64,000 nucleotides of DNA, taken from assembly GCA_041671305.1 (NCBI GenBank), contig JBAZBX010000001.1:40821-104820 (forward strand). The letters run 5' to 3'. A program made the position numbers and the translations under genes. Source of the DNA: Patescibacteria group bacterium. GTDB taxonomy: Bacteria; Patescibacteriota; Patescibacteriia; 2-01-FULL-39-33. The notes under the pieces were generated by a model. The model made no database searches. It was given only the letters and a program-made list of their open reading frames with translations, and was not told the origin of the DNA. This document shows, piece by piece, positions 7,775-49,810 of the stretch (its first letter is position 1; every line of letters starts with the position of its first letter).

Positions 7775-7892
7775 TGGCTGGGTGTTTATGAACAAATCCG
7801 AACCGAATTTAAACAAAAATCATGATCGGGCGGGCGGAATCCCCCCCAAACCCCTCCTTCCGCCCGACCTAAACATCTGGACGGCTGAGGCG
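7775..7892. repeat. 118-bp inverted repeat, left copy (IR-L)
   Basis: 100% identical to the reverse complement of 9326..9443. Contains an internal TCGGGCGG...CCGCCCGA hairpin. Confidence 0.9.
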
Positions 7893-7904
7893 AAATAGCA
7901 ATTT

Positions 7905-9302: not shown

Positions 9303-9325
9303 CTGGTTCTTTGGCGGTTTTATTC

Positions 9326-9443
9326 CGCCTCAGCCGTCCAGATGTTTAGGTCGGGCGGAAGGAGGGGTTTGGGGGGGATTCCGCCCGCCCGATCATGATT
9401 TTTGTTTAAATTCGGTTCGGATTTGTTCATAAACACCCAGCCA
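9326..9443. repeat. 118-bp inverted repeat, right copy (IR-R)
   Basis: Reverse complement is identical to 7775..7892. The outer end CACCCAGCCA resembles the tRNA-Gln 3' end CCCGCAGCCA. Confidence 0.9.
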
Positions 9444-9512
9444 GTTTCGTTTTTCATTTTTTAAAACCGAATCCCAACCGTTTTTTGGCTTAAATTCAAA
9501 TTTTTTGCCTTG
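9441..9512. repeat. 72-bp inverted duplicate (A') of the tRNA-Gln 3' end plus downstream flank (10931..11002)
   Basis: The reverse complement of 10931-10999 is identical to 9444-9512, and the CCA is also shared. Confidence 0.85.
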
Positions 9513-9574: not shown

Positions 9575-11062
9575 ATGAAATACTTTCTTTATGCCCGCAA
9601 GTCGACAGACGAAGAGGATCGTCAAGTTCTTTCAATTGAAGCCCAGCTCGCGGAGTTGAAGGAGTTAGCCGCCAAAGAAAAATTGGAAATTGCGGACTCG
9701 CTCTGCGAGTCCAAAACCGCCAAAGAACCAGGCCGAAAAATTTTCGGCGGAATGCTCGCTCGGATTGAAAAAGGTGAGGCCGACGGAATTTTAGCGTGGC
9801 ACCCAGATAGATTGGCCAGAAATAGCGTTGATGGTGGAAAAATTATCTACATGGTGGATATCGGCCAGATCAAAACGCTAAAATTCCCGACTTTTTGGTT
9901 TGAGAATACTCCGCAAGGGAAATTCATGCTCAATATCGCTTTCGGCCAAAGCAAATACTATGTTGATAATTTAAGCGAAAATGTTAAACGTGGTTTCAGG
10001 CAAAAGTTAAGGCGCGGCGAATATCCCAATAAAGCGCCCATCGGCTATCTTAACGACCGAACAGCTAAAACCGTGCTCATTGATCCTCTGCGCGCCAAGC
10101 TCGTGATAAAGATGTTTAAGATGTACAACACGGGAGAATTTTCGCTTAAATTTCTTAAAGATAAGTTTTGCGATATTGGCCTGACCAGCAAGCGCGGCAA
10201 AATCCTGACTGTCGGCATGATTTCTAACATATTGAATAATCCCTTTTATTGCGGAGTATTCAAGTTTAATGGCGAAATCTACCAAGGCAAGTACGAGCCA
10301 ATTATTTCCAAGAAGCTTTTTGATGAAGTTCAGGCGGTAATGAAAAACCGAGGACGGCCGCTCGGGCAAGACAAACACGATTATGCTTTTACTGGACTTA
10401 TGAAATGCAAGTGCGGCGCCTGCATTACCGCCGAACGGCAAAAAGGCCATATCTATTATCGCTGTACGAAAAAGCTTGGAGCCTGCGACGAAAAGTATAT
10501 CCGCGAAGAAAAACTGCTGGAGCAATTCCATGGCCTTTTTCAAAAAGTTTCTTTGCCAGATGACTGGATTGACAAGATGCTCGCTAAACTCGATGAGGAA
10601 CAAAAAAGCGACATGAAGTCATCGGTAGGTCTGATTGACGAGGTAAAAACGCAAATAGGAGCCATAGAGAGCAAGCTAGATAAGTTGCTCGATGATCGAT
10701 TAGAAGGATTACTCGATAAGGACGACTATTTGCGGAAGAAGGAACAACTCATCAATCAGAAAATTGCTTTTGAGGAGAAAATCCAGTCAATCAGGCAAAC
10801 GGGAAATAATTGGCTCGAACCGATGCGGGAATTCCTTTCCGCCAATAAACAAACCAAAAAAGTCGCCAATAGCGGCGACATTCTGGAAATCCGAGCATTC
10901 ATTAAAAAAATCGGCTCGAACTTTATTTTGCAAGGCAAAAAATTTGAATTTAAGCCAAAAAACGGTTGGGATTCGGTTTTAAAAAATGAAAAACGAAACT
11001 GGCTGCGGGACCTGGAGTCGAACCAAGATAACAGCTTTCAGAGAGCTGCGTCCTACCATTAG
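9575..11062 (+). CDS. Large serine recombinase (resolvase/invertase catalytic domain, recombinase domain and zinc-ribbon)
   Basis: YARKST catalytic-serine motif near the N-terminus; CKCGACITAERQKGHIYYRC zinc ribbon; 495 aa. The last ~20 codons are antisense to tRNA-Gln. Confidence 0.9.
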   Translation: MKYFLYARKSTDEEDRQVLSIEAQLAELKELAAKEKLEIADSLCESKTAKEPGRKIFGGMLARIEKGEADGILAWHPDRLARNSVDGGKIIYMVDIGQIKTLKFPTFWFENTPQGKFMLNIAFGQSKYYVDNLSENVKRGFRQKLRRGEYPNKAPIGYLNDRTAKTVLIDPLRAKLVIKMFKMYNTGEFSLKFLKDKFCDIGLTSKRGKILTVGMISNILNNPFYCGVFKFNGEIYQGKYEPIISKKLFDEVQAVMKNRGRPLGQDKHDYAFTGLMKCKCGACITAERQKGHIYYRCTKKLGACDEKYIREEKLLEQFHGLFQKVSLPDDWIDKMLAKLDEEQKSDMKSSVGLIDEVKTQIGAIESKLDKLLDDRLEGLLDKDDYLRKKEQLINQKIAFEEKIQSIRQTGNNWLEPMREFLSANKQTKKVANSGDILEIRAFIKKIGSNFILQGKKFEFKPKNGWDSVLKNEKRNWLRDLESNQDNSFQRAASYH

Positions 11063-11098: not shown

Positions 11099-11353
11099 TT
11101 AAATATGCTCTTCCAAAACCAGTCTTAAGCTGTTTTTCCCTTTCAATTCAATAGCGTTTTGTTTACTTAAACACGCCTCATAATATACCAACTCGAGTGG
11201 TTGCCTTTCCTTTGTTGAATTTACTTGTCCACTATTATGCAAATAAATCCTTTTTCTTAAATCTTGAGTAAATCCAATATAATATCTTTCATCCGCCAAA
11301 CTCTTTAACACATAAGTGTAATAAAATTGCATATATCTATTAAACCTATCCAT
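11099..11353 (-). CDS. GIY-YIG nuclease-family protein (UPF0213-like)
   Basis: YYTYVLKS...YYIGFTQDLRKRIYLHNSG...LVYYE. The longest ORF extends to 11404 through a GC-rich palindromic stretch, so the start is uncertain. Confidence 0.65.
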   Translation of the reverse strand: MDRFNRYMQFYYTYVLKSLADERYYIGFTQDLRKRIYLHNSGQVNSTKERQPLELVYYEACLSKQNAIELKGKNSLRLVLEEHI

Positions 11354-11477
11354 TGGACGACCCGCCTGCAACGCTTTGCGTAGCAATGCGGGCAGGTCCC
11401 GCAAAATAATTTAATCCAAAAAAGCACTATAGTGCTTTCTATAAATTAACAAAAAATAGCAAAAAAATCAAGTGAGA

Positions 11478-13244
11478 TTAGAACATCCCTATCACATCAG
11501 CCACAACATCTGTAGGCACCGATGGTTTGGTTACTACAACATCAGCTTCAGCTTTGGATTTAAACATGGCAGGATCCGCACCAAATACTGGGCGATCCAC
11601 TTTCTCTTTCAACTCCGGAATAACCAAATCCTCCTGAACCACTCCTCTAATGCTTACTGGCGCCGATATGGCCTCAGATATCACATCCTCAACCACCTTG
11701 CGATTACTCGCGCATTCCAGCCTATCTTTGTAAAACTGGCTTTTGACGGCAATTTCCAAAACATTATCCTTGGCGCTAAGCGGCTGACTAATCCTAAGTA
11801 AAGATGACAAAGTAAAATTTTTCTCAAACAACTTTTCAGAAATCTGCACCCAATTTTCTTTTACTTTATTTAAATCTATCGGGGTTTTTGTTTTTTGTTT
11901 GTTTTCGTCATCTGACATCTTAATTTCTGAAACCTCTTCCATAATCTCATCTTCTTTCTTTAATTCTTCCGCCACTTCCTCAACCTTAGTCTTTTCAATC
12001 TTCTCAGCTTCTTGAATCCGATTTAAATTTTGAATTTTCTCCTTAGCTTTATCAAAAACCTCTTTTGGAGGTGTAGGCTCAGCACACTTGGCATCTTCTC
12101 TCATAACTACTCCCCTGCCAGTACTAGCCGGATTAATATCTCTATTCTCACACACTACATTTTTATCAAATTGAATAACCGCCATCTCCAAAGGAAATTG
12201 CACGATAGTGGCGCTTTTTAATTCTTGAGCTTTTTCCATGAACAATTCAATAATGGAAATTAATTTTTCATAAGTAAATACTTCTGCTAATTTTTCAGCA
12301 GACTTCTGACTATCTTCATCAAGCTCAATACCAAAGTCATTCAAATTATAATTAACCTTGAGAAGCAAAATCTTTCTGAGAAATTCTATAAGTCCATCTG
12401 CAAAAACCTGTAAATCCACACCGTCTTCCACTAATTTATTTATCAATTCAATAGCGGCAGTTGGATTTTTCTCACCCAAAAAACTCAAAAAGTCAGTGAT
12501 GCTTTTGAAATCCGTACGAGGCAGAACCAATTCCGCCGAATCCATATCTATATCATCGCCGAGAGTAAGAATTTTTCCCAAAAGACTTTCGGCATCACGA
12601 ACGCAACCCTCACTGTGTGTCACAATATTTTTGAGTACATCTTCTGTTACTTTTTTACCTTCTGATTTTACTACCAATTTGAGCAAATCAAGCATTTCTG
12701 CCATGGAAACTTTTTTGAAATCAAATCTTTGGCAACGAGAAATAATAGTCTGTGGCAGCTTGTGCGTTTCTGTAGTGCAGAGAATGAATATCACGTGAGC
12801 CGGCGGCTCTTCCAATGTCTTGAGCAAGGCATTAAAAGCCGCCGTAGAAAGCATGTGTACCTCATCAATAATAAATACCTTGTATTTGCTTTTGGTGGGT
12901 GTAAATCTGGCATTCTCAATAATATTTTCTCTGACATTATCCACACCGGTATGAGATGCCGCATCAATCTCAATCGTATCCACAGAACTGCTATTTATCA
13001 CATCCAAGCACGAAGAACACTCATTGCATGGCTCGCTCTCCCCTTCTTTGCGATTTTCGCAGTTTATCGCCTTGGCAAAAAGCCTAGCCGAAGTCGTCTT
13101 GCCCAAGCCTCTTGGCCCGCAAAAAAGATAAGCATGGCCGATTTCGCCAAGCTCTATTTCATTTTGCAAAGTGATTTTGATGTGATTTTGGCCAATCAAA
13201 TCTTTGAAAGTCTGAGGCCTGTATTTACGATATAATGCGGACAT
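11478..13244 (-). CDS. dnaX: DNA polymerase III subunit gamma/tau
   Basis: GPRGLGKTT Walker A, clamp-loader box motifs and a CxxC zinc module; 588 aa. Confidence 0.9.
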   Translation of the reverse strand: MSALYRKYRPQTFKDLIGQNHIKITLQNEIELGEIGHAYLFCGPRGLGKTTSARLFAKAINCENRKEGESEPCNECSSCLDVINSSSVDTIEIDAASHTGVDNVRENIIENARFTPTKSKYKVFIIDEVHMLSTAAFNALLKTLEEPPAHVIFILCTTETHKLPQTIISRCQRFDFKKVSMAEMLDLLKLVVKSEGKKVTEDVLKNIVTHSEGCVRDAESLLGKILTLGDDIDMDSAELVLPRTDFKSITDFLSFLGEKNPTAAIELINKLVEDGVDLQVFADGLIEFLRKILLLKVNYNLNDFGIELDEDSQKSAEKLAEVFTYEKLISIIELFMEKAQELKSATIVQFPLEMAVIQFDKNVVCENRDINPASTGRGVVMREDAKCAEPTPPKEVFDKAKEKIQNLNRIQEAEKIEKTKVEEVAEELKKEDEIMEEVSEIKMSDDENKQKTKTPIDLNKVKENWVQISEKLFEKNFTLSSLLRISQPLSAKDNVLEIAVKSQFYKDRLECASNRKVVEDVISEAISAPVSIRGVVQEDLVIPELKEKVDRPVFGADPAMFKSKAEADVVVTKPSVPTDVVADVIGMF

Positions 13245-13330
13245 CTATGATACGTGAGTTGTTTATAAGTCATTCATATTTTACTAAGATTAAGACGATA
13301 AGTCAAAAATGCAAAACAACATAATATTGA

Positions 13331-13507
13331 AGCAAGATTGGGGGTTTGGGGGAAGCACCTTTCGCCAAAGCGCGAGTGTAAGCCGAACCTCAGCCAGCAG
13401 GATGAGGTGAGCGAAACGAAGCGCGACTAAGCAAGATAAAAAACACTCCGAGCATAAGGCGAAATTGCGTCCCCCAAAACCTTTGGTTCTTTCAGTTATG
13501 AAAGAAC
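13331..13507 (+). ncRNA. Copy 1 of a ~180-nt GC-rich structured element (candidate sRNA or cis-regulatory leader)
   Basis: Near-identical to 23770..23945. Terminal GGGGGTTTGGGGGA / TCCCCCAAAACC pairing, internal helices, and a 3' hairpin GTTCTTTC-agttat-GAAAGAAC. Confidence 0.45.
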
Positions 13508-13680
13508 ATAAATTAAACTTTTTTAAAAAATGGGTTGAATATAAGAGAAATTATCCAAAATTAGATAAAATATAGGATTAATACTTCCTATCTATTGACA
13601 AAAGTACAAATATATACTATATTATAGGGTCACAATGAGTGACGGAAGCACATCACAACCAAAAAGGAGCATTGACTGTC

Positions 13681-14085
13681 ATGAGAATAATCATGAATAC
13701 CAACTTCGGGGACAGAGAATATGGCCCGGAACAAGACAAGGAGGCCTCTTTCCGACTAGTCCTCGCGACGATGACCTGGATATGGACACGATTCCTGCCG
13801 TTGGCCATGGAATTGGAATACATGAAAGAAGCGAAGGTGCATTCCTTGACATTCTCAATTCCCAGCTTTGAACCTTCGGGCATTCTTCTGACAATTGTTT
13901 TTACGAAGCATGGTAAAAAGCGGCATAGACACAAAGCTTTCAAATTGGATATTGACCAAAATGGCTTGGCGAAACTGGAGGTTCCCAAAAATCCGACACC
14001 GCCCACAACTGCCATATGGTCAGATCCGATGACACCCGAACAATTGATTGAGTCGATCAAGGCAACAATGGAGATTACGGTATGA
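13681..14085 (+). CDS. Hypothetical protein (GC-rich island, first of two coupled genes)
   Basis: AAGGAG lies 8 nt upstream of ATG 13681 (the ORF-track start at 13639 is probably too early). GC is about 50%. The stop overlaps the next start as ATGA. Confidence 0.45.
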   Translation: MRIIMNTNFGDREYGPEQDKEASFRLVLATMTWIWTRFLPLAMELEYMKEAKVHSLTFSIPSFEPSGILLTIVFTKHGKKRHRHKAFKLDIDQNGLAKLEVPKNPTPPTTAIWSDPMTPEQLIESIKATMEITV

Positions 14086-14552
14086 AGACATTTTTCTCTG
14101 TTAAGGCTGTGGATCTGGACAATGACCGCCTCTCCAGCCTAATGGCGTTCTGCCTTTGGCTCCAAGGCGAGTTTAACCAACTCCTCTCCGACAGTCTTGG
14201 CGATGCCTGTGACATAATGCGTTGGACGATTAAATATTCCTCCAAGGGATTTATTGAGGCGTTCGCCGAATTTACACACGATGGTGAACGCCAGGGTGGA
14301 TTATGGACACAATATCCTGGAACGGCCCGATGCCTGCTAAGGTACACCGATCCCGAGATTGAAGTCTATACCCATCTGCTTTTCTGCGGAGAAGGCATCG
14401 GATGGAAGGATAACGGTATTTCAGATCTCGTTTCACGTGACCCCACCGAGATTGTGAAGGTACTCTCCGACGCCATAACACAAGGTATTCTGGAGGATCG
14501 TCGTTACAACGAACTCCATAAAGACGATATTGTTGAATTTGAAGGTGTGTAA
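14082..14552 (+). CDS. Hypothetical protein (GC-rich island, second gene)
   Basis: 156-aa ORF translationally coupled to the upstream gene; no recognizable domain. Confidence 0.45.
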   Translation: MKTFFSVKAVDLDNDRLSSLMAFCLWLQGEFNQLLSDSLGDACDIMRWTIKYSSKGFIEAFAEFTHDGERQGGLWTQYPGTARCLLRYTDPEIEVYTHLLFCGEGIGWKDNGISDLVSRDPTEIVKVLSDAITQGILEDRRYNELHKDDIVEFEGV

Positions 14553-14650
14553 TGCGACCTTCACCAACCGGCAGAAGCACGATCGCCATCGTGACTTTCT
14601 GCCCCCAACTGAATTTACAAATTCTCATTTGCAACTTCTGAGGGTTATAA

Positions 14651-14684
14651 ACAAAAGACGGAATAATTCCGTCTTTTGTTTTAA
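14651..14684. terminator. Bidirectional rho-independent terminator
   Basis: AAAGACGGAAT-aa-ATTCCGTCTTT perfect hairpin followed by TTTGTTTT, between convergent genes. Confidence 0.7.
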
Positions 14685-14704
14685 ATTAAAAATTAAAAAT
14701 TAAC

Positions 14705-17248
14705 TCAGAATTTCGGCCTAGCCGGCATACCCATTTGCCCAATCCTGGATCTCTCCACAATTTCCCTGACTACAATTTTGCGATCACGTCCAAACTTGAG
14801 ACGCGACAATTCTTTGAGTGGCGCTACGATGCCTTTATCGGCCTGGAAATAATCCTTGAAATTATAAATCTTCATATTGAATGGATCGGAAGCGGCATTA
14901 TCAATTAAGAGACGCAGATAAACTGAGAATTTCTCCGTATTCATCACATCATATTCACTCACTTGCGGACCAAGCTGTTTGGCGATAGTCTCGGCATCAT
15001 CCACGCCGATTCTATATGCCGCCACAGTACCCACATTACCAAAAATAGCATCCCTTACCCTGGTGTCATTGTTCTGCACCAGTTGCGCTATGAATTGATG
15101 ACCCATGATCAAATTAAGTTTGTATTTTCTCGCTTCGGACAAAATAATAGAAATACTGTCGGTAATGAAATTTTGAAACTCATCAATGTAGAGATAGAAA
15201 TCATTTCTTTGATCCTCCGGCAAATCAGCGCGTCCCAAAGCCGCCATCTGCAACTTGGATACCGCAATTAAACCAAGTAAGTTGCTATTGGTCTCACCAA
15301 TTTTTCCTTTGCATAAATTCATGAGCAATATTTTGCCTTCATCCATGACCTGTCTGAAATTAATTCCTGATCTGGATTGGCCGATGATATTTCTCATCAA
15401 TTCATTTTCCACAAAACGTCCTGTTTTGGAAATAACATAGGAAAGCATATCGGATCCCGTAGAGCCTTTTTGCGAAGCCGGATATTCCCTTTCCCAGAAA
15501 TCCTTTACCAAAATATCGGTGACGTGCTCTAATTTTTGCTTGCGATAAGTTTCATCAGTAAAAATACGCGCCAATTCCACCAAAGTTCCAGGATCATCCT
15601 GATCGGCCATAAGTGCCAGAAGCGCGTTCCTCATATAATGCTCAAACATAGGTCCTGCCATGGCCGGATCCGGCAATAATTTGTAGAAAATATTAATCAT
15701 TTCCTGAGCCGCCATATCCATTTCATACGGCGTGTGCGCCTCTAGCATATTGAGCCCCATAGGTCTTTCCATGTCCGAAGGATCAAAAATTATCACATCA
15801 TCAAGACGATTTTTCGGGATATAAGGCAAAATGTCTTCCACAAAACTGCCATGCGGATCCACGATACAAACGCCCTTGCCGGCCGCAATATCCTGCAAAG
15901 CCATATGCGACATGAAATAACTTTTACCGGTACCGGTCATACCGACGATATACATATGTCTTCTCCTATCTTCATCCTTGATACGAACGATGTGTTTCAT
16001 GCCCCTGAAATCGTTTTCACCCAGGACAATTCCTGTTGCAGGCATATTTACCGGAGGCGCCAATCTTTTGGCTTGAAGCCACTTGATGCGAGGCACTTCC
16101 GTGTTGGGATATGGCAAGTGCCACAAGGAAGCCATTTCTTCAGAATTCAAAACGCAATAATTACTCTCATCAAAATTACGATAAATAAAATCTTGGATTA
16201 ATTTATTGCCTGAACCCTTGAGTACCGCCTTGAACGAGTTGGCATATTGATAACTGGAATATTGCGAAAAAGCGTTGGCTATGTGCCTCAGCACATCCTT
16301 GGCGAGATTTTCCACTGGCGCAAAAGTAATTATCCTAATATTTACATCCAATCCTGATTTAGCGGCTTTTTCTTCAATAAATTTAACCATCTGCTCTTCC
16401 ATGGGCGATAATTTATAAAGCTCTGGCGGTTTGCTGTCATCTTTTTTGGTAGAAGTCGGCAACCAATCTGACGGCTTGCCCAAAGTCTTGGAGAGTGCCG
16501 TAGAAGATGCCGAGGACATGGCGTCCTTCAATTTCTTACCCTGTTGCATTTCCGAAGCCACTTTGACACCTCTCTTTCTCCAATTAGGAGAAGCCGAACG
16601 CATGACAAATTGTATGGCCACCGTATGTCCCGGAGGCAATTTGGACAAAGTGCTCAGTATTCCCAGAATCGGATCCGTCTCCATTTGTTTGTAAGTCAAA
16701 ATAGGAAACATGGATTGCTTGGCTAACTTCAAATATCCGCCAGCCACATATCCTTGCTGATTAAAAATATTATAATCCTCCACTTCCTCAATCTGACAAT
16801 GCGGGAACTGTGACAGAATCTGCTGTTTGATATAATTTTCCAGATAAACAGGCACCGCCATATAGAAAGTGATAAGCCCATCAGAGCCAACCACCATCTC
16901 AAAAGACCAGCAGTCATAACGCCCAAAAAGCCAAGTCTTGAATCCTTTGTGAGGCATCAAACCGCCCAAACTGGCATAAAAGTTTTCCACACCGGCAAGC
17001 AATTCTTTGATATTTTTCACCTTATTCTCGTCATTTTTATCCAAATCAAATTCAGGAACAGTCAACATAAATATCTTTTTCTCAAAAATTGCCGGGTACA
17101 GCTTGTGTGAGGACAAAATTTTACGCAAAATAAAAACCAGGATAACCGCCGCCACGATAACGAAGATTATGATAAATAACCAAAAGATAATCTGATTCAG
17201 CAATGCTGATGAGATAATTTGTTCGTCAATAGGAATATTTAATTCCAT
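14705..17248 (-). CDS. Type IV coupling-protein-like ATPase (TraD/TrwB/VirD4 family, TraG-D_C-like) with an N-terminal membrane anchor
   Basis: N-terminal TM helix; Walker A GMTGTGKS as in TrwB; Walker B region YLYIDEFQNF followed by ARKYKLNLIMGHQ; 847 aa. Confidence 0.6.
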   Translation of the reverse strand: MELNIPIDEQIISSALLNQIIFWLFIIIFVIVAAVILVFILRKILSSHKLYPAIFEKKIFMLTVPEFDLDKNDENKVKNIKELLAGVENFYASLGGLMPHKGFKTWLFGRYDCWSFEMVVGSDGLITFYMAVPVYLENYIKQQILSQFPHCQIEEVEDYNIFNQQGYVAGGYLKLAKQSMFPILTYKQMETDPILGILSTLSKLPPGHTVAIQFVMRSASPNWRKRGVKVASEMQQGKKLKDAMSSASSTALSKTLGKPSDWLPTSTKKDDSKPPELYKLSPMEEQMVKFIEEKAAKSGLDVNIRIITFAPVENLAKDVLRHIANAFSQYSSYQYANSFKAVLKGSGNKLIQDFIYRNFDESNYCVLNSEEMASLWHLPYPNTEVPRIKWLQAKRLAPPVNMPATGIVLGENDFRGMKHIVRIKDEDRRRHMYIVGMTGTGKSYFMSHMALQDIAAGKGVCIVDPHGSFVEDILPYIPKNRLDDVIIFDPSDMERPMGLNMLEAHTPYEMDMAAQEMINIFYKLLPDPAMAGPMFEHYMRNALLALMADQDDPGTLVELARIFTDETYRKQKLEHVTDILVKDFWEREYPASQKGSTGSDMLSYVISKTGRFVENELMRNIIGQSRSGINFRQVMDEGKILLMNLCKGKIGETNSNLLGLIAVSKLQMAALGRADLPEDQRNDFYLYIDEFQNFITDSISIILSEARKYKLNLIMGHQFIAQLVQNNDTRVRDAIFGNVGTVAAYRIGVDDAETIAKQLGPQVSEYDVMNTEKFSVYLRLLIDNAASDPFNMKIYNFKDYFQADKGIVAPLKELSRLKFGRDRKIVVREIVERSRIGQMGMPARPKF

Positions 17249-17730
17249 AGATTGTTTTGATTTTTTTCCTCTTTGGCTTGCGCCAAAATTTTATCGGTTT
17301 TAATTTTTGCCGTTTGCTCCAGAAAAAACTTATTGATTCCTGGAATCATTTTGAGCCAATCTTTGATCAGCTGGAAAATCTTTTTAATTTTAATTTTGGG
17401 CTGATGCATGAGCCTGATAATCAAATTTGTGGCTTCCTCGCCCTTAACCTTGAATTTTTGCTGTTCAATAGGCATCATTTTGACATACATGTCCTCCAAA
17501 CCTTCTTCAAGTATAAATTCCACTTTCTTAAATTCTTGTTCTTGTGGCGTAAGAGGAGCCGGAGGCGCAGAAAAATGCTGAGGCAATTCCATACCCACAG
17601 TCTCTTCGGCCTGCTCTCTGGAACCGCCGATCTCATGCATGCCTTCTGGACGAAAATTACTTTCACCGCTATCGGGCACTTCCGGCGTTGGCAACTGCTC
17701 AATTATTTTTTCTGGATTTGGATTAACCAT
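17239..17730 (-). CDS. Hypothetical protein overlapping the coupling-protein start by 10 nt (probably co-transcribed)
   Basis: 163-aa ORF, acidic and Pro-rich; the stop overlaps the downstream start. Confidence 0.4.
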   Translation of the reverse strand: MVNPNPEKIIEQLPTPEVPDSGESNFRPEGMHEIGGSREQAEETVGMELPQHFSAPPAPLTPQEQEFKKVEFILEEGLEDMYVKMMPIEQQKFKVKGEEATNLIIRLMHQPKIKIKKIFQLIKDWLKMIPGINKFFLEQTAKIKTDKILAQAKEEKNQNNLWN

Positions 17731-17784
17731 TTTTTATTTCTGAAAGTTATTAACATTAATATTATAGCATAAAATAATTATTTA

Positions 17785-18768
17785 TTGTATAATATTTATA
17801 TGAGTAAAAATATTGCCATACGTCCAGAGCACAGAAATATTTCCAACCTTCAATCCACGGCTGGCAAGTTGAGTTGGATAAATATTACTAATGCCAAAAC
17901 CAAGGAAATTGATTATTTAAAACGTAAATTTAAATTTTTGGATTGCGATCTCAAAGATACTCATTCCAAAAGAATTTCTCAACGCCCCAAATTTTATGTG
18001 AGAAACAATTATTGTTTTCTCATACTCCAATTTCCTATCTATAATCCCAAAACCAGGACCATAGACGCCGAAGAAATAGATTTTTTTATCGGCTCTGACT
18101 ATATTATTTCTATTCATAGAGACGTCTTGCCTCCATTGGTTGAGCTCTTCAACAAATGCAGTAACGATCGCTTTTTTAAGGATCAATACCTCAACAGTAC
18201 GAATTCAATCCTGTTGTATGAAATTCTTACCCGCCTTCATGAATATTGCTATCCCATATTGGATCACATCAGCCTGGATATCAAAAATTTAGAAGGCAAC
18301 ATTTTTACTGGCAGAGAGCGCCGAATGGTGACAGAAATCCTTTTTATCAGAAGAAATCTATTGAATTTCCGAAAAATGATGCAGCCGCACAAAACCATTA
18401 TTCAAAAAATAGCCAAAAAAGAAATTTCTTTCTTGTCCATGACCGGCAGCAAGGAATATTTTGACGATCTCATAGAAAACACCAAGGATATTTGGGATAA
18501 TTTAAACAGCCAAAAGGAAACATTGGAAGCGCTTGAAGACACCAACACCTCGCTGGTCTCTTTCAAGCTAAACGATATTATGCGCACGCTGACTATTTTC
18601 TCGGTCATAATTTTTCCGCTTACCCTCTTTGCTGGTATTTTCAGCATGGGTATTCGCGGTGGCATGCCTTTTTCAGAATCACCTTATGGTTTTTGGATTA
18701 TAATAGGAATTATGGCCATGGGAGCTATTACCATGTTTGTTTTCTTCAAAAAAAGAAAATGGATGTAA
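17785..18768 (+). CDS. CorA-family magnesium/cation transporter-like protein with a non-canonical GMN loop
   Basis: 327 aa; two C-terminal TM helices; KKRKWM tail; the loop reads AGIFSMGIRGGMPF instead of AGIYGMNF. Confidence 0.55.
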   Translation: MYNIYMSKNIAIRPEHRNISNLQSTAGKLSWINITNAKTKEIDYLKRKFKFLDCDLKDTHSKRISQRPKFYVRNNYCFLILQFPIYNPKTRTIDAEEIDFFIGSDYIISIHRDVLPPLVELFNKCSNDRFFKDQYLNSTNSILLYEILTRLHEYCYPILDHISLDIKNLEGNIFTGRERRMVTEILFIRRNLLNFRKMMQPHKTIIQKIAKKEISFLSMTGSKEYFDDLIENTKDIWDNLNSQKETLEALEDTNTSLVSFKLNDIMRTLTIFSVIIFPLTLFAGIFSMGIRGGMPFSESPYGFWIIIGIMAMGAITMFVFFKKRKWM

Positions 18769-18778
18769 ATTGTTAATT

Positions 18779-18808
18779 CAAAAAACCGCCTTTTGGGCGG
18801 ATTTTTTT
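18779..18808. terminator. Bidirectional terminator hairpin
   Basis: AACCGCC-TTTT-GGGCGGA followed by a run of T, between convergent genes. Confidence 0.55.
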
Positions 18809-19430
18809 ATTCCTTTTCTGGATGTTTTGTAATTATCATTCTGTAATCTCTGCCGGGAACTGATTCCAACACAATATCGGCCTGTTCCCTAAAATCAGAA
18901 ATTATTTTTCTGAATGTTTTATCCTCTTGCAATAGAGAGAGTATAGGATAAAAATAAGCACTCCCACCTGGCTTAAGAGTTCGAATAACTTCACTAAAAG
19001 TATCCCTATATTCCTGCTCATGCGTCTGCAAAAAAAACGGTATTGCCAAATAAGATATTTCAAAGTCAAAAGTATCATCTTTAAATGGCATTTCCTGCAC
19101 TAATCCAGATATGACATCGCCATGATGCTTCTTTCTTTCGTTAGAACTAAATAATGTGCCCAAGGCTGGATTTAAAGATATCACCTCAATGCCGTGCTTT
19201 TCCGCCTCTTTGGAAAATACGCCCTCTGACCCGGAGCCAATATCTAATCCACACATACCCTTCATATCGTCGATTGGTAAATTAAGTATTTCACGAGTCT
19301 CCTCAAAGGACCAATTTGTTTGGGCTTCTCTTCTTTTAAGCGGATCCTTGAAATCTTCAATCCGAGTCTTTCTATTAAATGGCTTTTCTTCGTTGGTAGC
19401 TAAAAAACTAGTCTCTCTATTTTCTATCAT
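18807..19430 (-). CDS. Class I SAM-dependent methyltransferase
   Basis: Motif I LDIGSGSEG plus acidic motif II. Confidence 0.65.
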   Translation of the reverse strand: MIENRETSFLATNEEKPFNRKTRIEDFKDPLKRREAQTNWSFEETREILNLPIDDMKGMCGLDIGSGSEGVFSKEAEKHGIEVISLNPALGTLFSSNERKKHHGDVISGLVQEMPFKDDTFDFEISYLAIPFFLQTHEQEYRDTFSEVIRTLKPGGSAYFYPILSLLQEDKTFRKIISDFREQADIVLESVPGRDYRMIITKHPEKE

Positions 19431-20497
19431 ATATTTTTACAAACATTTTTTATATCTTTCAACGACTCCACTGTCACGAGCTGACTTCGCAATTCCTTGG
19501 CATTTTCCCAGCCCTTCACATACCACAGCAGATGTTTTCTCAACTCTATTATACCATGAGTGTCTTTGGATTTAAATGCCGCTTCGGCGTGCTGGATTAT
19601 GACCTTCTTAATTTTGGCTTTATCAAATTTCTGATATTTTCCCGTATTTAGATAATCCTTGATCTGCTTAAATATCCAAGGCTTGCCATAAACTCCGCGA
19701 GCAATGCCGAATCCATCAACTCCGGTTTTTTCCCACATGATTTTTGCATCCATAGGAACATTTATGCCACCATTTCCAAGTACTATGCCTGGAAATTCTT
19801 TTTTGATCTTTTTTATCATCTCATAATCAATCTCGGCATTAAACGGATTTTCATACGGCCGGCCGTGAATCATAATGGCGGAAATATTTAATCCTTTCAT
19901 TTTTTTGACAAAATCAAGCGCGGTTATAATCTTATTATCTTTTTTATAATTGTCATCCCGAGGGAGGATGTAATCAGCCGACCGTGGGGATCCCGCGGGA
20001 TTGCCACACTTCGCCCTTGAGGGCTCGCTCGCAATGACATTGATACTAGATCTTATTTTGACAGAAACTGGCAATTTTGTCCCCGAGAGAACCGCTTCTA
20101 CTATTTCTCTACATTTTTCTAAATCTCGCATCAAAGTCACCCCACCGCCATGTCCAGCAACTTTCTTGGCTGGACAGCCAAAATTAATGTCTATGCCATC
20201 AAAACCGGCCTTTTCTGCCAGTTGTGCCGCCTTAGTAAATTTCTCCGGATGTTTACCGAATAATTGAATTACAATCGGACGTTCATCTTTGGAAAATTTT
20301 AAAAATTCCAAAGTCTTTTTGGAATCATAGTGCAAACCGTCGGCCGAAACCATTTCCGTATAAACCACATCAGCGCCGTATTTCCTGCAGATTTGGCGAA
20401 AAGCCGAATCAGTCACTCCCGCCATAGGAGCAAGCGCTAGAATTGGTTTTTTCTTTAGTCCGCCTGTGGCAGAAAGTTTTGACCAAAAATTTTTCAT
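19427..20497 (-). CDS. tRNA-dihydrouridine synthase (Dus family) carrying an in-frame 30-codon insertion
   Basis: ALAPMAGVTDSAFR...FDGIDINFGCPAKKV...GGGVTLM TIM-barrel Dus motifs. The extra SINVIASEPSRAKCGNPAGSPRSADYILPRDDNYKK segment is encoded by the palindrome at 19951-20039. Confidence 0.85.
   Translation of the reverse strand: MKNFWSKLSATGGLKKKPILALAPMAGVTDSAFRQICRKYGADVVYTEMVSADGLHYDSKKTLEFLKFSKDERPIVIQLFGKHPEKFTKAAQLAEKAGFDGIDINFGCPAKKVAGHGGGVTLMRDLEKCREIVEAVLSGTKLPVSVKIRSSINVIASEPSRAKCGNPAGSPRSADYILPRDDNYKKDNKIITALDFVKKMKGLNISAIMIHGRPYENPFNAEIDYEMIKKIKKEFPGIVLGNGGINVPMDAKIMWEKTGVDGFGIARGVYGKPWIFKQIKDYLNTGKYQKFDKAKIKKVIIQHAEAAFKSKDTHGIIELRKHLLWYVKGWENAKELRSQLVTVESLKDIKNVCKNI
19951..20039. 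repeat. 89-bp GC-rich imperfect palindromic element inserted in-frame in dus (RPE/MITE-like)
   Basis: TGTCAT...ATCCCGCGGGAT...ATGACA. About 60% GC against AT-rich flanks. The length is a multiple of 3 and the reading frame is preserved. Confidence 0.6.
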
Positions 20498-20579
20498 TAT
20501 TATATATTGACAGAATATTTAATTTAAAATAAGGTAAATTATAGTACACTTAACAATTCACCCTGAGGGAGAAAAAAAC

Positions 20580-20741
20580 ATGAAATCTGTTCCATGGGAC
20601 TTCAAACTTATGCTGGGATTTTTGGGATTATTTCTCCTGGTCATTATAGTACAGGAGGCATGGGAGCTTATCCACATCCCGTGGGTTTACAACCTGCTCA
20701 TGAGAATAGGCGAAGGTTTGTCGGCTCTCAATCGCAGTTAA
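20580..20741 (+). CDS. Possible small membrane protein (53 aa), not in the ORF track
   Basis: GAGGGAG lies 8 nt upstream of the ATG; hydrophobic core FLGLFLLVIIV. Confidence 0.25.
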   Translation: MKSVPWDFKLMLGFLGLFLLVIIVQEAWELIHIPWVYNLLMRIGEGLSALNRS

Positions 20742-20802
20742 ATCTGCGGCCACACGACGACAACTTGCACCTGGAGCGACACCCTCTCGCTTCCGGTGCT
20801 TT

Positions 20803-22170
20803 TTATTTTTTCTTCAAATTATACCCTTCGGGAGTATCTTCAATAATATATCCGAGTTTATTTATCTCATCTCTTAACTCATCAGATTTCTTAAAATCCT
20901 TGGACTTCTTCGCTTCTATTCTCTGTTCGGCTAGATCAGTTACTTTTTGAGGGATTTCTTCTATCTCAATTTTATCCAAATTTAATCCTAAAACTCTATC
21001 AAAATCCAAAAGTGTGGCTTTCTTGTCTTCGTCGGCAATATCGCTTTTTATAACCTCCCAAACCAAGGCCATCACCTGTGGCATCGCCAAATCATCATTT
21101 ATTAATCCAATAAATTTATTCTGAAATTCTTTATTAATTTTTCCTACCTTATCAATTCCCGCTACAAAATCATTCAACTTCATTCTGGCTGTCTTGGCGC
21201 CTTCAAGCCCTGCCCAAGTGAAGTTCAATTGGCTACGATAATGCGATGTTAAAAATAAATATCTTAAATCAAGAGCCACGAAGCCTTTTTCTTCCAAATC
21301 CTGCAACCGATAAAAATTATTTTTTGACTTGCTCATTTTTTCACCTTCAACCATCAAAAATCTAGTGTGAAACCAATAATCAACAAACTTGACCCCATTA
21401 GCGCACTCGCTTTGAGCAATTTCACATTCATGATGCGGAAAAATATTATCCTCACCGCCAGTATGAACATCAAAGGTTTTTCCCAAATACTTCATGGACA
21501 TAGCACTACATTCAATATGCCAACCAGGAAATCCTTTATGGCCGAATGCATCCCACTCCATCTGTCTTTTTTCACCCTCAGCTGAAAATTTCCATAATGC
21601 AAAATCGGTTGGATTTTTCTTTTCCGGATTAATCTCCACTCTGGCGCCTTCTTTCAATTTATCCAAAGTATTGCCAGATAATTGGCCATATTGTGAAAAC
21701 TTACTAGTATCAAAATAAATACCGTCGGATGTTTGATATCCATAACCCTTATCAATCAAGACTTGGACTAATTCAATCATTTCTTGAATGTGATCAGTCG
21801 CCTTGCAAATTACATTCGGTTCCAAAAAATTCAACTTTTTTCTATTGGCCAAATAAATCTCAGTAAAATATTCAGCAATTTCATGAGCGCTTTTACCGCC
21901 AGCTTTGGCCGCTTTTTCCAATTTATCCTCACCTGTATCGCCATCAGAAGTTAAGTGCCCCACATCGGTAATATTCATTACGTGCCCAACATTATATCCG
22001 CTATATTCAAAGACACGACGCAAAATATCGGAATTAAAATAATTCCAAGCGTGCCCCAAATGATCATAGCTATAAACGGTCGGACCGCAAGTATACATGC
22101 CAACCTGGCCTTTTTTGAGCGGTTTAAAGTCTTCTTTCTTTCTACTTAAGGTATTGTAAATCTGAAGCAT
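20803..22170 (-). CDS. cysS: Cysteine--tRNA ligase
   Basis: HLGHA (HIGH) and KMSKS motifs with a CysRS Zn-binding cysteine pattern; 455 aa. Confidence 0.95.
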   Translation of the reverse strand: MLQIYNTLSRKKEDFKPLKKGQVGMYTCGPTVYSYDHLGHAWNYFNSDILRRVFEYSGYNVGHVMNITDVGHLTSDGDTGEDKLEKAAKAGGKSAHEIAEYFTEIYLANRKKLNFLEPNVICKATDHIQEMIELVQVLIDKGYGYQTSDGIYFDTSKFSQYGQLSGNTLDKLKEGARVEINPEKKNPTDFALWKFSAEGEKRQMEWDAFGHKGFPGWHIECSAMSMKYLGKTFDVHTGGEDNIFPHHECEIAQSECANGVKFVDYWFHTRFLMVEGEKMSKSKNNFYRLQDLEEKGFVALDLRYLFLTSHYRSQLNFTWAGLEGAKTARMKLNDFVAGIDKVGKINKEFQNKFIGLINDDLAMPQVMALVWEVIKSDIADEDKKATLLDFDRVLGLNLDKIEIEEIPQKVTDLAEQRIEAKKSKDFKKSDELRDEINKLGYIIEDTPEGYNLKKK

Positions 22171-22311
22171 ATTTGATTTTTATTAATTAAACTAATTTTA
22201 GAATTTTTTGGGCTTTTTGGCAAGTTTTGTCAAATAAAAAGAAGGCTTGAGTAAGGATTATCGTCTCCAATACTCAAGCCTCAAAAAGGGGGCTACCAGC
22301 GGATTATCCAC

Positions 22312-22692
22312 CTACCTCACTGCCAGCTCGTGAGCCGGCCGTTGTGCTTTGTGATACATCCCAGTCATCACCTTCTCTCCGTCCGTCAAGCTGCACACAG
22401 CACACAGCACATACTTCGGGAAAATTTGACTTCCCCTGAATTGTCCACACGCATCACAAAGTTCCATTGCAGCCCGAAGATTGGCCTGAGCATGCTCCTT
22501 TGCTCCCTCCGAGCCAAATTCAACTATCCACTGAGCTGCCCGACGCAACCGAGAGTTATTGATACAGGGATCTTCAACGCCGTCCCTGTCCGGACTATTC
22601 AATAGCTCCTCCGCCTTGTCCAAACAACCAAGAACTCCGCGCGCGTCTTGAATGCGCTTCTGTTTCTCATCACAACAAACCAACTCCGACAT
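22312..22692 (-). CDS. Cysteine-rich hypothetical protein (GC-rich island)
   Basis: GGAAGGAG lies 8 nt upstream of the ATG; 126 aa with about 9 Cys including CDACG and CAVC pairs; GC about 55%. Confidence 0.5.
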   Translation of the reverse strand: MSELVCCDEKQKRIQDARGVLGCLDKAEELLNSPDRDGVEDPCINNSRLRRAAQWIVEFGSEGAKEHAQANLRAAMELCDACGQFRGSQIFPKYVLCAVCSLTDGEKVMTGMYHKAQRPAHELAVR

Positions 22693-23152
22693 GTTTCATT
22701 CTCCTTCCAACGTCTGAACCCTAAAATGTACGACACAAAACAAAAAATCAGCTCCGACCGACAGGGTGGGCTGACTGACTCTCTTATCTAAATTCTTCTA
22801 GACAACGTCAATACTTCCACCCCTGGGCAAGAGTAGCAACAAGCCTAACAAATTTTGAGTGAAAGTTTTATTCATATACTTATATAAGTATAATAGCAAA
22901 TATATCAGAAAAGTCAAATACCTTCTTTATCTCAAAGCCACTTTTCTAGAAAAGTGGCGCAAAAGTCGCAAGCAGACAAAATCATGGCCAAATTTTCTCT
23001 GCATTCGCTAAGCCACATGCGCCACTGCTGTGGCTATATGTTGGCTTTTAACGCTCATGCTTAGAGAAAATTGGCACCCGCCCGAACGTACCGTTCGGTA
23101 CGGGCGGGCAATATTTTGTAATGCTTGCATGGGTGCAGAAAGTTGAATTTGA

Positions 23153-23186
23153 ATAAAAACCCGCACCCTAAATCGATGGGTGCGGA
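23153..23186 (-). terminator. Rho-independent terminator (minus strand)
   Basis: CCGCACCC-taaatcgat-GGGTGCGG followed by a T-run on the minus strand, after the stop at 23212. Confidence 0.65.
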
Positions 23187-23211
23187 CTGTAACGCGTGTT
23201 GAAATGTTTCA

Positions 23212-23553
23212 CTATTGGGCGAAGAAAGCCTTGCGGATTTTCCGTCCCACGGAGGAAAGTATCTTCTCGAGATCATGGGGCATGTCTTCACAGGACATAG
23301 TGAGGGCAAAATAATTTCCGCTCTTCTGCTCGATGAAGCTTTCAAGATTGATTGACTCGCCATTGTTTGTCATGGAGTCAAGGGCGAGTTTGATTTTTGC
23401 CCAATTTTCCATATTTTGCGGATGCAGTTCGAAATACATGATCCATTTATCCGCACTTGGGCGCCTGGAAGCTGCAACGACTCGCCACTCTTCAGATCCG
23501 CCCACACTACAGACGGGAGCTATCCTCAAATTGCCAATTTTTCGTATTCGCAT
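23212..23553 (-). CDS. Hypothetical protein (GC-rich island)
   Basis: AAGGAGG lies 7 nt upstream of the internal ATG (MRIRKIG...). The longest ORF extends to 23673. Confidence 0.4.
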   Translation of the reverse strand: MRIRKIGNLRIAPVCSVGGSEEWRVVAASRRPSADKWIMYFELHPQNMENWAKIKLALDSMTNNGESINLESFIEQKSGNYFALTMSCEDMPHDLEKILSSVGRKIRKAFFAQ

Positions 23554-23769
23554 CGCTTGTTCCTCCTTTGGTTGTGCGACGGAATCTCGTATGTTTTGAG
23601 AGCACGGCTGCTCTAAGGAACTATTCCTCGGAAAAGCAGTTAATTTAACGACCTTACCGAGAAATGGTTTCATATTATAATATAATAAATTTAGACAAAT
23701 GTCAAAATTCTCGTAAGTTGTAATTAAATATTTTTATATTATGTATTTTTTAAAAAGCACAAATATCTA

Positions 23770-23945
23770 AGCAAGATTGGGGTTTGGGGGAAGCACCTTT
23801 CGCCAAAGCGCGAGTGTAAGCCGAACCTCAGCCAGCAGGATGAGGTGAGCGAAACGAAGCGCGACTAAGCAAGATAAAGAACACTCCGAGCATAAGGCGA
23901 AATTGCGTCCCCCAAAAGCTTTGGTCCTTTCGCTTACGAAAGGAC
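23770..23945 (+). ncRNA. Copy 2 of the ~180-nt structured element, about 75 nt upstream of metA
   Basis: About 98% identical to copy 1 over the body. The 3' hairpin GTCCTTTC-gcttac-GAAAGGAC carries compensatory T>C and A>G changes relative to copy 1. Confidence 0.45.
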
Positions 23946-24019
23946 AGAAGAAATATTTGACCAAATCCGGAAACCATTGATATAATTAACTAGATTTAGT
24001 TAATAATCCATTATTCATT

Positions 24020-24928
24020 ATGCCAGTAAACGTCCCCGACAGTCTCCCAGCCGTAGGAATCCTAAAAAAGGAAAATATTTTTGTCATGGAGCAATCACGC
24101 GCCTCACATCAAGATATTCGTCCACTACGTATTGCCATTGTAAATATCATGCCTCTCAAATTAGTCACGGAAACACAACTTCTGCGCCAGCTTTCTAATT
24201 CCCCGCTTCAAGTGGAAATTGACTTGGTTCATATGGCCGAACACCAGTCCAAAAACACTCCCAAAGAACATTTGGATTTTTTCTACAAAACATTTGATCA
24301 AATCAAAAATCAGAAATACGACGGCCTGATTATTACCGGCGCGCCAGTGGAAATGATAAATTTTGAGGAAGTTGATTATTGGCCGGGCATCACAAAAATA
24401 ATGGAATGGAGCAAAACCAACGTGACTTCTACACTCCACATCTGCTGGAGCGCGCAAGCCGGATTATATTATCATTACGGAATCAACAAACATCCCCTGG
24501 AGGAGAAAATGTTCGGGGTTTTCTGGCACAAAGTCAATGATTCAAAATGTTTGCTGATGAGAGGATTTGATGATCAATTTCTGGCGCCTCACTCCAGACA
24601 TACTGGCCTAGACCGTAATGATATTATAAATAATAAAAACATTAAGCTTGTCGCCGAGTCAATTGAAGCTGGGCCGTACATTATTGTATCGCGCGATCAT
24701 AAACAAATCTTTGTGACTGGACACAGCGAATATGACGCGCTCACCCTCAAAGGAGAATATAATAGAGACATTGAAAGAGGATTAAACATAAATATTCCCA
24801 ACAATTATTTTCCTAATGACGATCCGACCAGACAGCCGGAAGTGCTTTGGCGCTCTCATGCCAATCTGCTTTTTTCCAATTGGCTTAATTATTACGTTTA
24901 TCAAGAAACTCCATTTGATTGGAGTTAA
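24020..24928 (+). CDS. metA: Homoserine O-acyltransferase (MetA family, HTS/HTA)
   Basis: Near-colinear with E. coli MetA: [23 protein letters not shown]...ITGAPVE...[12 protein letters not shown]...FLAPHSRH. Confidence 0.9.
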
Positions 24929-24939
24929 ATTAAAAATAT

Positions 24940-49704: not shown

Positions 49705-49810
49705 TTGGAACCTCCCTTCTCCCTTATCCATCTTCTCGTTGTTTGAAGACCATTCTTACAAAGAATAGAACCAATTTATTATACCATAATATTATAAACT
49801 TTGCAAGACA

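Follow-up and report, generated by a model that had tools for sequence, protein, structure and literature searches.

A 64,000-nucleotide (nt) stretch of the genome of a Patescibacteria group bacterium (GenBank assembly GCA_041671305.1, contig JBAZBX010000001.1, positions 40,821 to 104,820; this whole stretch is called the window, and positions are counted within it) contains a short operon of two open reading frames (ORFs), ORF1 and ORF2, in the spacer between dnaX and a gene encoding an ATPase resembling type IV coupling proteins (T4CP-like). This is very probably a real coding operon and a recent gain. Its products, of 134 and 156 amino acids (aa), are orphans, and the presence of ORF1 differs between two near-identical strains. 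The best explanation that we can offer, to which we give somewhat less than even credence, is that of a recently gained, strain-variable orphan operon encoding a two-protein module.

The two ORFs form an autonomous, complete expression unit for two orphan proteins, the coordinates of which are given in Table 1. A preliminary description of this DNA had proposed that the ORFs were translationally coupled through an ATGA overlap and that a perfect bidirectional terminator followed them; the lengths, coordinates and overlap of the ORFs (ATGA at 14082-14085) were confirmed, as was the terminator. The frame of ORF1 remains open in the 5' direction as far as a GTG at 13639, giving a product of 148 aa if counted from this codon. 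The start of transcription, placed from the promoter, is predicted to lie near 13630, at a palindrome constituting a candidate operator or 5' hairpin; GTCAC-N5-GTGAC, a pattern picked after the palindrome had been seen, has a single match in the 64 kb (0.00 expected). In the sister strain described below, the corresponding sequence is GTCACAAAGGGTGAC, in which the arms are kept and the centre is altered. Downstream, the arms of the terminator are flanked by an A-run on the 5' side and a T-run on the 3' side, and the convergent gene encoding the T4CP-like ATPase ends at 14705, so that the terminator serves both directions. It was missing from the list produced by a consensus terminator scan. 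The interval from the end of ORF2 to the end of the ATPase gene (14553-14704), which includes a strong hairpin in the 3' untranslated region (UTR) of ORF2, has a predicted folding energy of -46.2 kcal/mol (z -7.65).

We investigated whether the ORFs could be considered genes. The length of the frames provides weak evidence for coding, because frames of this size arise by chance at P values of 0.006 to 0.08: in sequences simulated under a first-order Markov model of the region, P was 0.08 for a single frame of at least 156 codons and 0.006 for two frames on the same strand summing to at least 314 codons. The minus strand also holds open frames, of 135 and 120 aa. Codon-frame log-odds (in-frame versus out-of-frame), with 54 other ORFs from the window as the training set, were 0.149 for ORF1 (margin 0.134) and 0.168 for ORF2 (margin 0.342), the named frame being the best of six in both cases. 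The corresponding values for the 54 reference genes were 0.266±0.085 (minimum 0.103, smallest margin 0.182), and those for the antisense ORFs were 0.003, -0.092 and -0.211. The minus-strand ORFs at 13653-14060 and 14272-14634, which are co-oriented with the T4CP-like gene, as are the spacer genes of relatives, were considered as the true genes and rejected, because they score 0.003 and -0.092, have no Shine-Dalgarno site and are situated beyond the terminator. The codon scores, the promoter, both Shine-Dalgarno sites, the overlap and the terminator together make the plus-strand operon the credible reading, with the status of gene more secure for ORF2 than for ORF1.

The evidence for a recent gain comes from gene order. 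A scan of one genome per species identified 36 related loci, most of which carry the label Candidatus Buchananbacteria or Patescibacteria. The T4CP-like gene is adjacent to and co-oriented with dnaX in about 29 of these 36 loci, and the longer order CysS-Dus-(MT)-CorA-o163-T4CP-like-dnaX (where MT is a methyltransferase and o163 a conserved ORF of 163 aa) is kept in many of them. Neither ORF1 nor ORF2 was found at any of the 36 loci by tblastn, even at E≤10, and blastn and nhmmer likewise detected neither the DNA of the spacer nor the repeat element that precedes the operon in the window. The closest relative (L002) displays 90% aa identity for the T4CP-like protein, 78% for DnaX and 92% for a large serine recombinase encoded beyond dnaX; its T4CP-like/dnaX spacer is 287 bp long, with a GC content of 27.6% and a terminator hairpin of its own, versus 1461 bp in the window, and homology between the two picks up again at the dnaX promoter. 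These comparisons indicate that the operon was probably gained in this lineage after its split from L002-like relatives. The position of the operon does not reflect a chimeric assembly, given the agreement of two independent contigs at its junctions: Logan contig L001 is identical (100%) to window positions 13483-14632, confirming the junction between the repeat element and the operon, and the sister-strain contig L047 independently confirms that ORF2 adjoins the ATPase gene. Among the relatives, the spacer is between 125 and 3289 bp long and holds unrelated genes encoding an SLT transglycosylase (L003), a serine hydrolase, long coiled-coil proteins or a small W-rich family. As other junctions of the syntenic block vary too, we do not claim that this spacer is a special hotspot. 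The small W-rich proteins (72-123 aa, at times in a tandem pair, with no Pfam match) occupy the spacer of four relatives (L011 8248-8472, L014 8083-8313, L023 5600-6231 and L034 10488-11087), and their genes are co-oriented with the ATPase gene and GC-richer than their own contig in each case (50% vs 39% in L014). This family has no counterpart in the window and is unrelated to ORF1 and ORF2.

The composition of the operon is suggestive, but not decisive on its own. The GC content of the pair is 47.1% (ORF1 45.9%, ORF2 48.0%), against a mean of 38.7% for the window, a contrast of about 8 points, or about 2 standard deviations (SD). The pair is the 872-bp stretch with the highest GC content in the 64 kb, and 0.55% of stretches reach 47.1% (z ~2.6). 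GC at third codon positions (GC3) is 0.54 for ORF1 and 0.50 for ORF2, versus 0.387±0.063 for 58 other ORFs of the window, and GC at four-fold sites is 0.61 and 0.54, respectively, versus 0.446±0.082. The GARP/FYMINK amino-acid ratio is 0.69 for ORF1 and 0.82 for ORF2 (0.62±0.19 for the other ORFs). Similar GC contents are found elsewhere in the window, at 22312-22692 (52.5%), 49354-49731 (47.6%) and in a LeuA-like gene (44.9%). The contrast of about 50% against about 35% first put forward was therefore overstated, as it implied a difference of 15 points; the pair is nonetheless the GC-richest stretch, and its GC3, about 2 SD above that of the window genes, deviates moderately rather than extremely. 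Horizontal acquisition had been proposed on the basis of this composition, which overstated the case when taken alone; it is the synteny that carries the conclusion of a recent gain.

A second occurrence of ORF2 provided information about the history of the operon. The 90%-identity cluster of ORF2 contains one further member (P0004), encoded by the 1795-bp contig L047 of IMG metagenome 3300014208. Positions 96-1795 of this contig align with window positions 14082-15781 at 99.2% identity, with 13 mismatches and no gaps, in an alignment extending from ORF2 through the 3' UTR and the terminator into the ATPase gene, of which it covers 1077 nt. Positions 10-88 align with window positions 13592-13667 at 81% identity, with TTGACA-17-TATATT and the arms of the palindrome retained. 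About 400 nt are gone from between these two segments in L047, and the promoter and leader join ORF2 directly. ORF1 has thus been gained or lost, as a gene-sized unit, between near-identical strains. Support for the conservation of the ORFs does not extend beyond this one strain, which has ORF2 alone.

The two strains also differ in their pattern of nucleotide change. Six nucleotides differ in ORF2, in five codons (3, 4, 20, 21 and 106), all five changes being non-synonymous and none synonymous, versus seven nucleotides in the ATPase gene, corresponding to one non-synonymous and five synonymous codons (Fisher's exact test, p=0.015; p=0.048 without codons 3 and 4, which are adjacent to the junction). 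Divergence is graded, with 81% identity in the leader, five changes within the initial 62 nt of ORF2 and then one in about 1.3 kb, a pattern fitting a recombination tract with its right edge between codons 21 and 106 of ORF2. The N-terminus of ORF2 is thus subject either to diversifying selection or to no constraint, with too few changes to tell which. In the T4CP-like gene, six of the seven differences, all synonymous, lie within 52 nt at the end of L047 (L047 1724-1775; window 15710-15761), and this cluster may correspond to a second recombination tract or to assembly noise at the end of the contig.

Neither protein had a match in Pfam, PADLOC, PHROGs or NCBIfam (E≤1), or among PDB sequences (E≤10), bearing out the initial statement that neither has a recognizable domain. 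A word-indexed search of 5.8 billion clusters recovered only the query itself for each ORF, and self matches alone were found among 15 billion proteins; tblastn against 50,697 phage and 72,556 plasmid records, and scans of IMG/VR, yielded nothing for the pair. The two proteins are therefore orphans. An exhaustive HMMER search with ORF2 as the query against 1.84 billion representatives gave a single non-self match (P0003; E 4e-21), which was rejected as a tandem-repeat artefact: this 3237-aa protein consists of plant-type Rx_N coiled-coil units in tandem (Pfam E 1e-246), its score sums 25 stretches of about 2 bits each, and one or two of its repeat units alone match nothing. P0003 similarly "matches" many unrelated Pfam families, calling for caution with whole-sequence E-values for repetitive targets. 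ORF1 and ORF2 are also unlike two other GC-rich orphans, o126 and o113, in sequence comparisons.

The ORF1 protein has an isoelectric point (pI) of 8.0 and a basic patch (KHGKKRHRHK), and the ORF2 protein is acidic (pI 4.5); neither has a signal peptide or a transmembrane or hydrophobic segment. Single-sequence AlphaFold2 (AF2) models were of low confidence for both, with predicted local distance difference test (pLDDT) scores of 54 for ORF1, modelled as beta-alpha-beta-beta-beta-beta-alpha, and 49 for ORF2 (60-71 for residues 20-90), modelled as a long helix followed by a three- to four-stranded meander sheet and a helix. Fold searches detected no toxin fold above noise. The order of elements is similar in the two models, but an origin of the ORFs as diverged paralogues was rejected, as BLASTP and Smith-Waterman comparisons against shuffled sequences revealed no similarity (z 0.28). 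The order of elements in the ORF1 model also equals that of the inhibitors AcrIIA11, T7 Gp1.2 and PsiB and of the HPF/YfiA beta-alpha-beta-beta-beta-alpha fold, from which ORF1 differs in having neither sequence similarity nor a mobile-element context; this likeness would be a lead only.

We infer transcription, coupling, complex formation and a toxic or neutralising activity for the module that we tentatively prefer. Transcription would start from the near-consensus promoter, at the small palindrome, leaving a leader of about 50 nt ahead of ORF1; ORF2 would be translated by termination-reinitiation at the overlap, and the message would end at the 3' hairpin and the terminator common to the convergent ATPase gene. 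ORF2 would be the stable component, and ORF1 a presence/absence polymorphism made by recombination. The products, two small cytosolic alpha+beta proteins, might form a stoichiometric binding pair in which the acidic ORF2 protein partners or neutralises the dispensable ORF1 protein with its basic patch, although our confidence in both these steps is low. Such an accessory module would be of the conflict type (toxin-first toxin-antitoxin (TA), toxin-immunity or inhibitor) rather than housekeeping. The coupling, the opposite charges, the survival of ORF2 without ORF1, the palindrome at the start site and the rapid non-synonymous change all fit binding or neutralisation of ORF1 by ORF2. The palindrome fits autoregulation, and the non-synonymous excess in ORF2 could, with low confidence, reflect fast or diversifying evolution, as in conflict genes. 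We nevertheless consider a binding-pair conflict module doubtful.

The system closest in layout is the toxin-first type II TA module (HigBA, HicAB and MqsRA types), in which, likewise, two small neighbouring genes overlap at their stop and start codons and have a promoter of their own with a palindrome where transcription starts, the upstream protein is more basic than the acidic downstream protein, and the downstream gene can persist alone, in a strain-variable, horizontally gained setting. By contrast, ORF1 and ORF2 match no toxin or antitoxin family, whether among the toxin superfamilies (RelE/ParE, MazF, VapC/PIN, HicA, HipA, Doc, GNAT and others) or among the antitoxin DNA-binding domains (helix-turn-helix, ribbon-helix-helix, AbrB and Phd/YefM), the low-confidence models showing neither a helix-turn-helix nor a ribbon-helix-helix; the proteins are larger than usual, and the two genes do not co-occur in L047. 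A module in which ORF2 is a toxin requiring ORF1 is excluded, because L047 has ORF2 without ORF1 and the pair is therefore not obligatory; a toxin-first module, with ORF1 as the toxin and ORF2 as its neutraliser, is possible. Polymorphic toxin-immunity cassettes (CdiA-CT/CdiI and Rhs-CT/immunity) are similar in being gene-sized cassettes swapped or lost by recombination between conserved flanks, with an atypical composition, a small acidic downstream protein and rapid non-synonymous change. The operon differs from them in lacking a large upstream toxin gene, a pre-toxin motif and any known toxin or immunity domain, and in having a dedicated promoter, with a ribosome-binding site and start codon for ORF1 itself. 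No match to known defence systems was obtained with PADLOC, and the neighbouring genes are dnaX and those for the T4CP-like ATPase, CorA, Dus and CysS. An integron gene cassette would consist of a promoterless ORF with an attC site after it, located downstream of Pc/attI beside an intI gene for a tyrosine recombinase; the overlapping ORFs have neither a spacer nor attC between them and no IntI, the nearby recombinase being of the large serine type.

The locus in fact fits a familiar category, that of strain-specific ORFan islets: absence from close relatives, conserved gene order, atypical composition, a lack of homologues and variation between near-identical strains are common to both. Likewise, in being absent from relatives in which the flanking order is kept, and in deviating, albeit moderately, in composition, the operon resembles a genomic islet. 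In AT-rich genomes, ORFans tend to have a higher AT content than the genome as a whole, and this operon departs from that tendency in being GC-richer, and from ORFan islets generally in having unusually complete expression signals.

Several observations weigh against a conflict module. Profile and PDB sequence searches revealed no toxin, antitoxin, immunity or defence family resembling either protein, and no DNA-binding domain was detected in either with profiles. At 134 and 156 aa, the proteins exceed most components of type II TA systems. Five of the six changes in ORF2 lie within its first 21 codons, beside the recombination junction, and change that is entirely non-synonymous is equally expected if an ORF without function drifts neutrally. 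At the edges of the insert, neither a mobility gene nor a target-site duplication was found, and the flanking repeats are 10- to 12-mers occurring at chance level. For ORF1, the frame margin lies below the lowest of the 54 reference genes, and the protein has no NCBI entry in the protein collection, being present only as IMG and Logan gene calls. The initial suggestion of a toxin-antitoxin or defence pair has thus gained no positive support, as the TA and defence profiles are empty and the only other occurrence of ORF2 lacks ORF1; the architecture is the sole support here for the rule of thumb equating a small coupled pair with such systems.

Two rival accounts, both of which we regard as unlikely and neither as the more probable, bear on whether one or both of the ORFs are functional. 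In the first, only ORF2 is functional, as a fast-evolving single-gene accessory cassette, and ORF1, either passenger DNA or an ORF of very recent origin inserted between the promoter and ORF2, affects ORF2 only through translational coupling, if at all. The presence of ORF2 behind the same promoter in L047, the weaker frame signal of ORF1, its record as gene calls only and the lack of similarity between the two sequences are consistent with this account. It fits less well with the good AAGGAG and the 134-codon frame of ORF1, ending exactly on the start codon of ORF2, with this frame still being the best of six, with an AF2 model no worse than that of ORF2, or with an indel of exactly one gene, as for gene gain or loss rather than random DNA. 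In the second, neither ORF is functional, and the region is a decaying, higher-GC foreign remnant (of a lost mobile element or phage, for example) with frames open partly by chance. The absence of homologues from all searches, the exclusively non-synonymous differences in ORF2, frame lengths only modestly past chance with antisense frames of similar length, and codon scores in the lower tail of the window genes would all be expected of such a remnant. However, the promoter, two well-spaced Shine-Dalgarno sites, the start/stop overlap and the terminator are placed as a working operon needs them, the promoter and ORF2 are retained in a second strain despite the divergence of the leader, the named frames outscore every antisense frame, and the AF2 models have ordered alpha/beta cores (residues 20-90 of ORF2).

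A more ambitious version of the module that we prefer would be a new two-protein conflict module of Patescibacteria, either of the toxin-first TA or effector-immunity type or an anti-defence inhibitor with its partner, exchanged as a cassette behind a conserved promoter and perhaps linked to the T4CP, with the spacer at the 3' end of the ATPase gene as a landing slot across Buchananbacteria-like genomes; we consider this improbable. It is less probable still that the pair is functionally tied to the T4CP-like ATPase, comprising a secreted substrate or effector that varies between strains and the chaperone or immunity protein of this substrate or effector, both encoded in a variable slot adjoining the ATPase gene at its 3' end. 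This ATPase is of the VirD4/TrwB type (847 aa; domains TrwB_AAD_bind, TraG-D_C and T4SS-DNA_transf), and VirD4-like T4CPs are reported to be widespread in Patescibacteria, in which they are mostly distant from virB4 (PMC12102498). The pair is directly convergent to the T4CP-like gene, with a terminator in common, ORF2 is acidic and of the size of a chaperone, and the spacers of relatives carry other variable small genes, including that for the SLT transglycosylase. On the other hand, the pair lies on the opposite strand with its own promoter, precluding co-transcription with the ATPase gene; in relatives, the spacer is occupied by genes of unrelated families in the other orientation; the variability of other block junctions means that the adjacency may be incidental; and the pair has no known secretion signal or effector domain.

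The repeat element on the left of the operon is not part of it, as a complete promoter separates them; ORF1 starts 170 nt past the end of copy 1 (13511). Three copies of about 180 nt, with 94-99% identity, are known. The third was obtained by a pattern scan of metagenomes, the eight other matches of which were chance matches in GC-rich contigs. The element folds into a long rod with a trailing 9-bp hairpin (z -5.8 on the plus strand and -5.1 on the minus strand), in which copy 2 displays two compensatory base-pair changes. The similarity of all three copies stops directly after this hairpin, and the element is therefore dispersed as a unit in its own right. It could be an unclassified small RNA gene or resemble a miniature inverted-repeat transposable element (MITE); its identification as a known RNA was rejected, as Rfam yielded no match, either at gathering scores or with E≤10. 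We also rejected the possibilities that the element carries the pair as cargo and that the pair belongs to an island bounded by copies 1 and 2 (13341-23949), because the core genes for the T4CP-like ATPase, CorA, Dus and CysS lie between these copies and copy 3 is found elsewhere without the pair.

It is highly improbable that the element acts as a riboswitch or leader for the pair, uniting it in a single regulon with metA, the gene downstream of copy 2. Its strong structure, the compensatory pairs of the trailing hairpin and the location of both window copies ahead of plus-strand genes are in keeping with such a role, but the element is separated from ORF1 by a complete promoter, the unit conserved in the sister strain is promoter-ORF2, copy 3 precedes the unrelated SLT-like/infB/rbfA genes, again with a promoter-like site between, folding is near-equal on the two strands, and there is no Rfam match. 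Finally, we consider it next to impossible that the ORFs are ordinary core genes with a GC content raised by expression level or amino-acid content: the core genes for SecA and the LeuA-like protein do reach 44-45%, but the ORFs are far from widespread, with no homologue in the databases searched and no occurrence at the 36 related loci, even that with 90% identity in the neighbouring protein.

Table 1. Features of the operon, the adjacent repeat element and the surrounding genes (positions in the window unless a contig is named).
Feature	Position	Strand	Details
sigma-70-type promoter, TTGACA-17 nt-TATATT	13595-13623	+	11/12 consensus positions; hexamers and spacing kept in L047
palindrome at predicted transcription start, GTCACAATGAGTGAC	13629-13643	+	
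Shine-Dalgarno site of ORF1, AAGGAG	13665-13670	+	10 nt 5' of ATG; read from sequence
ORF1	13681-14085	+	134 aa from ATG; TGA stop at 14085
Shine-Dalgarno site of ORF2, GGAG	14070-14073	+	8 nt 5' of ATG, within the 3' end of ORF1; read from sequence
ORF2	14082-14552	+	156 aa; NCBI entry: hypothetical protein WC244_00235
strong imperfect hairpin, 3' UTR of ORF2, GGCAGAAGCACGATCGCCATCGTGACTTTCTGCC	~14570-14603	+	identical in L047
bidirectional intrinsic terminator	14649-14681	both	arms 14649-14664 / 14666-14681, 16+16 nt, 100% complementary
gene-sized indel (ribosome-binding site and coding sequence of ORF1)	13668-14081	+	gone from L047; edges ±15 nt
lineage-specific spacer content (repeat element, operon and terminator)	13330-14690		no counterpart in L002
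repeat element copy 1	13330-13511	+	adjoins operon on the left
repeat element copy 2	23768-23949		upstream of metA; 95% identity to copy 1
repeat element copy 3	L041 3432-3617	-	98.9% over 180 nt; same metagenome as L047; upstream of SLT-like/infB/rbfA
dnaX	11478-13244	-	left of operon
T4CP-like ATPase gene	14705-17248	-	right of operon
GIY-YIG ORF	11099-11404	-	101 aa, free-standing; between tRNA-Gln and dnaX
serine recombinase gene	9575-11062		enclosed by second inverted-repeat pair
inverted repeats, first pair	7775-7897 / 9321-9443		123 nt, 99%; encloses 348-aa ORF with no Pfam match
inverted repeats, second pair	9438-9512 / 10931-11005		75 nt, 100%; right arm overlaps 3' ends of recombinase gene and tRNA-Gln
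second GC-rich orphan islet	22312-23673	-	between CysS and repeat element copy 2
homoserine O-succinyltransferase (MetA/HTS) and HD_4-domain protein genes	24020-25464		after repeat element copy 2, beside LeuA-like gene

The genes surrounding the operon are, on the left, dnaX, a small GIY-YIG ORF, a tRNA-Gln gene and a large serine recombinase gene and, on the right, the genes for the T4CP-like ATPase, the conserved 163-aa ORF, CorA, a methyltransferase, Dus and CysS. The recombinase and tRNA-Gln genes are 2.6 kb from the operon, on the far side of the core gene dnaX. The GIY-YIG ORF has no counterpart at the 36 related loci (tblastn), including that of L002, which keeps dnaX and the recombinase, and is another strain-specific insertion. 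The two pairs of inverted repeats listed in Table 1 abut each other, in a layout that looks like an invertible or integrated-element architecture. The second GC-rich orphan islet contains a Cys-rich ORF of 126 aa (52.5% GC), with a self match only in 5.8 billion clusters, and a 153-aa frame (46.5% GC), the likely product of which, after AAGGAGG, is 113 aa long, with a promoter TTGACA-17-TATTAT; the ORFs of this islet have no Pfam match and were not found at the related loci. Exact-sequence look-ups of dnaX and the 153-aa ORF, made in search of further sister-strain sequence, found neither on record. The product of the gene following copy 2 of the repeat element was assigned to the homoserine O-succinyltransferases with a Pfam E-value of 1e-141. 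Such biosynthetic genes are uncommon in reduced Patescibacteria genomes.

If functional, the operon would be a clean and very young case of gene gain and loss in the reduced genome of a symbiont, adding two protein families without any relatives. Two near-identical strains differing by exactly one gene behind a common promoter would then constitute a natural experiment on gene acquisition in Patescibacteria.

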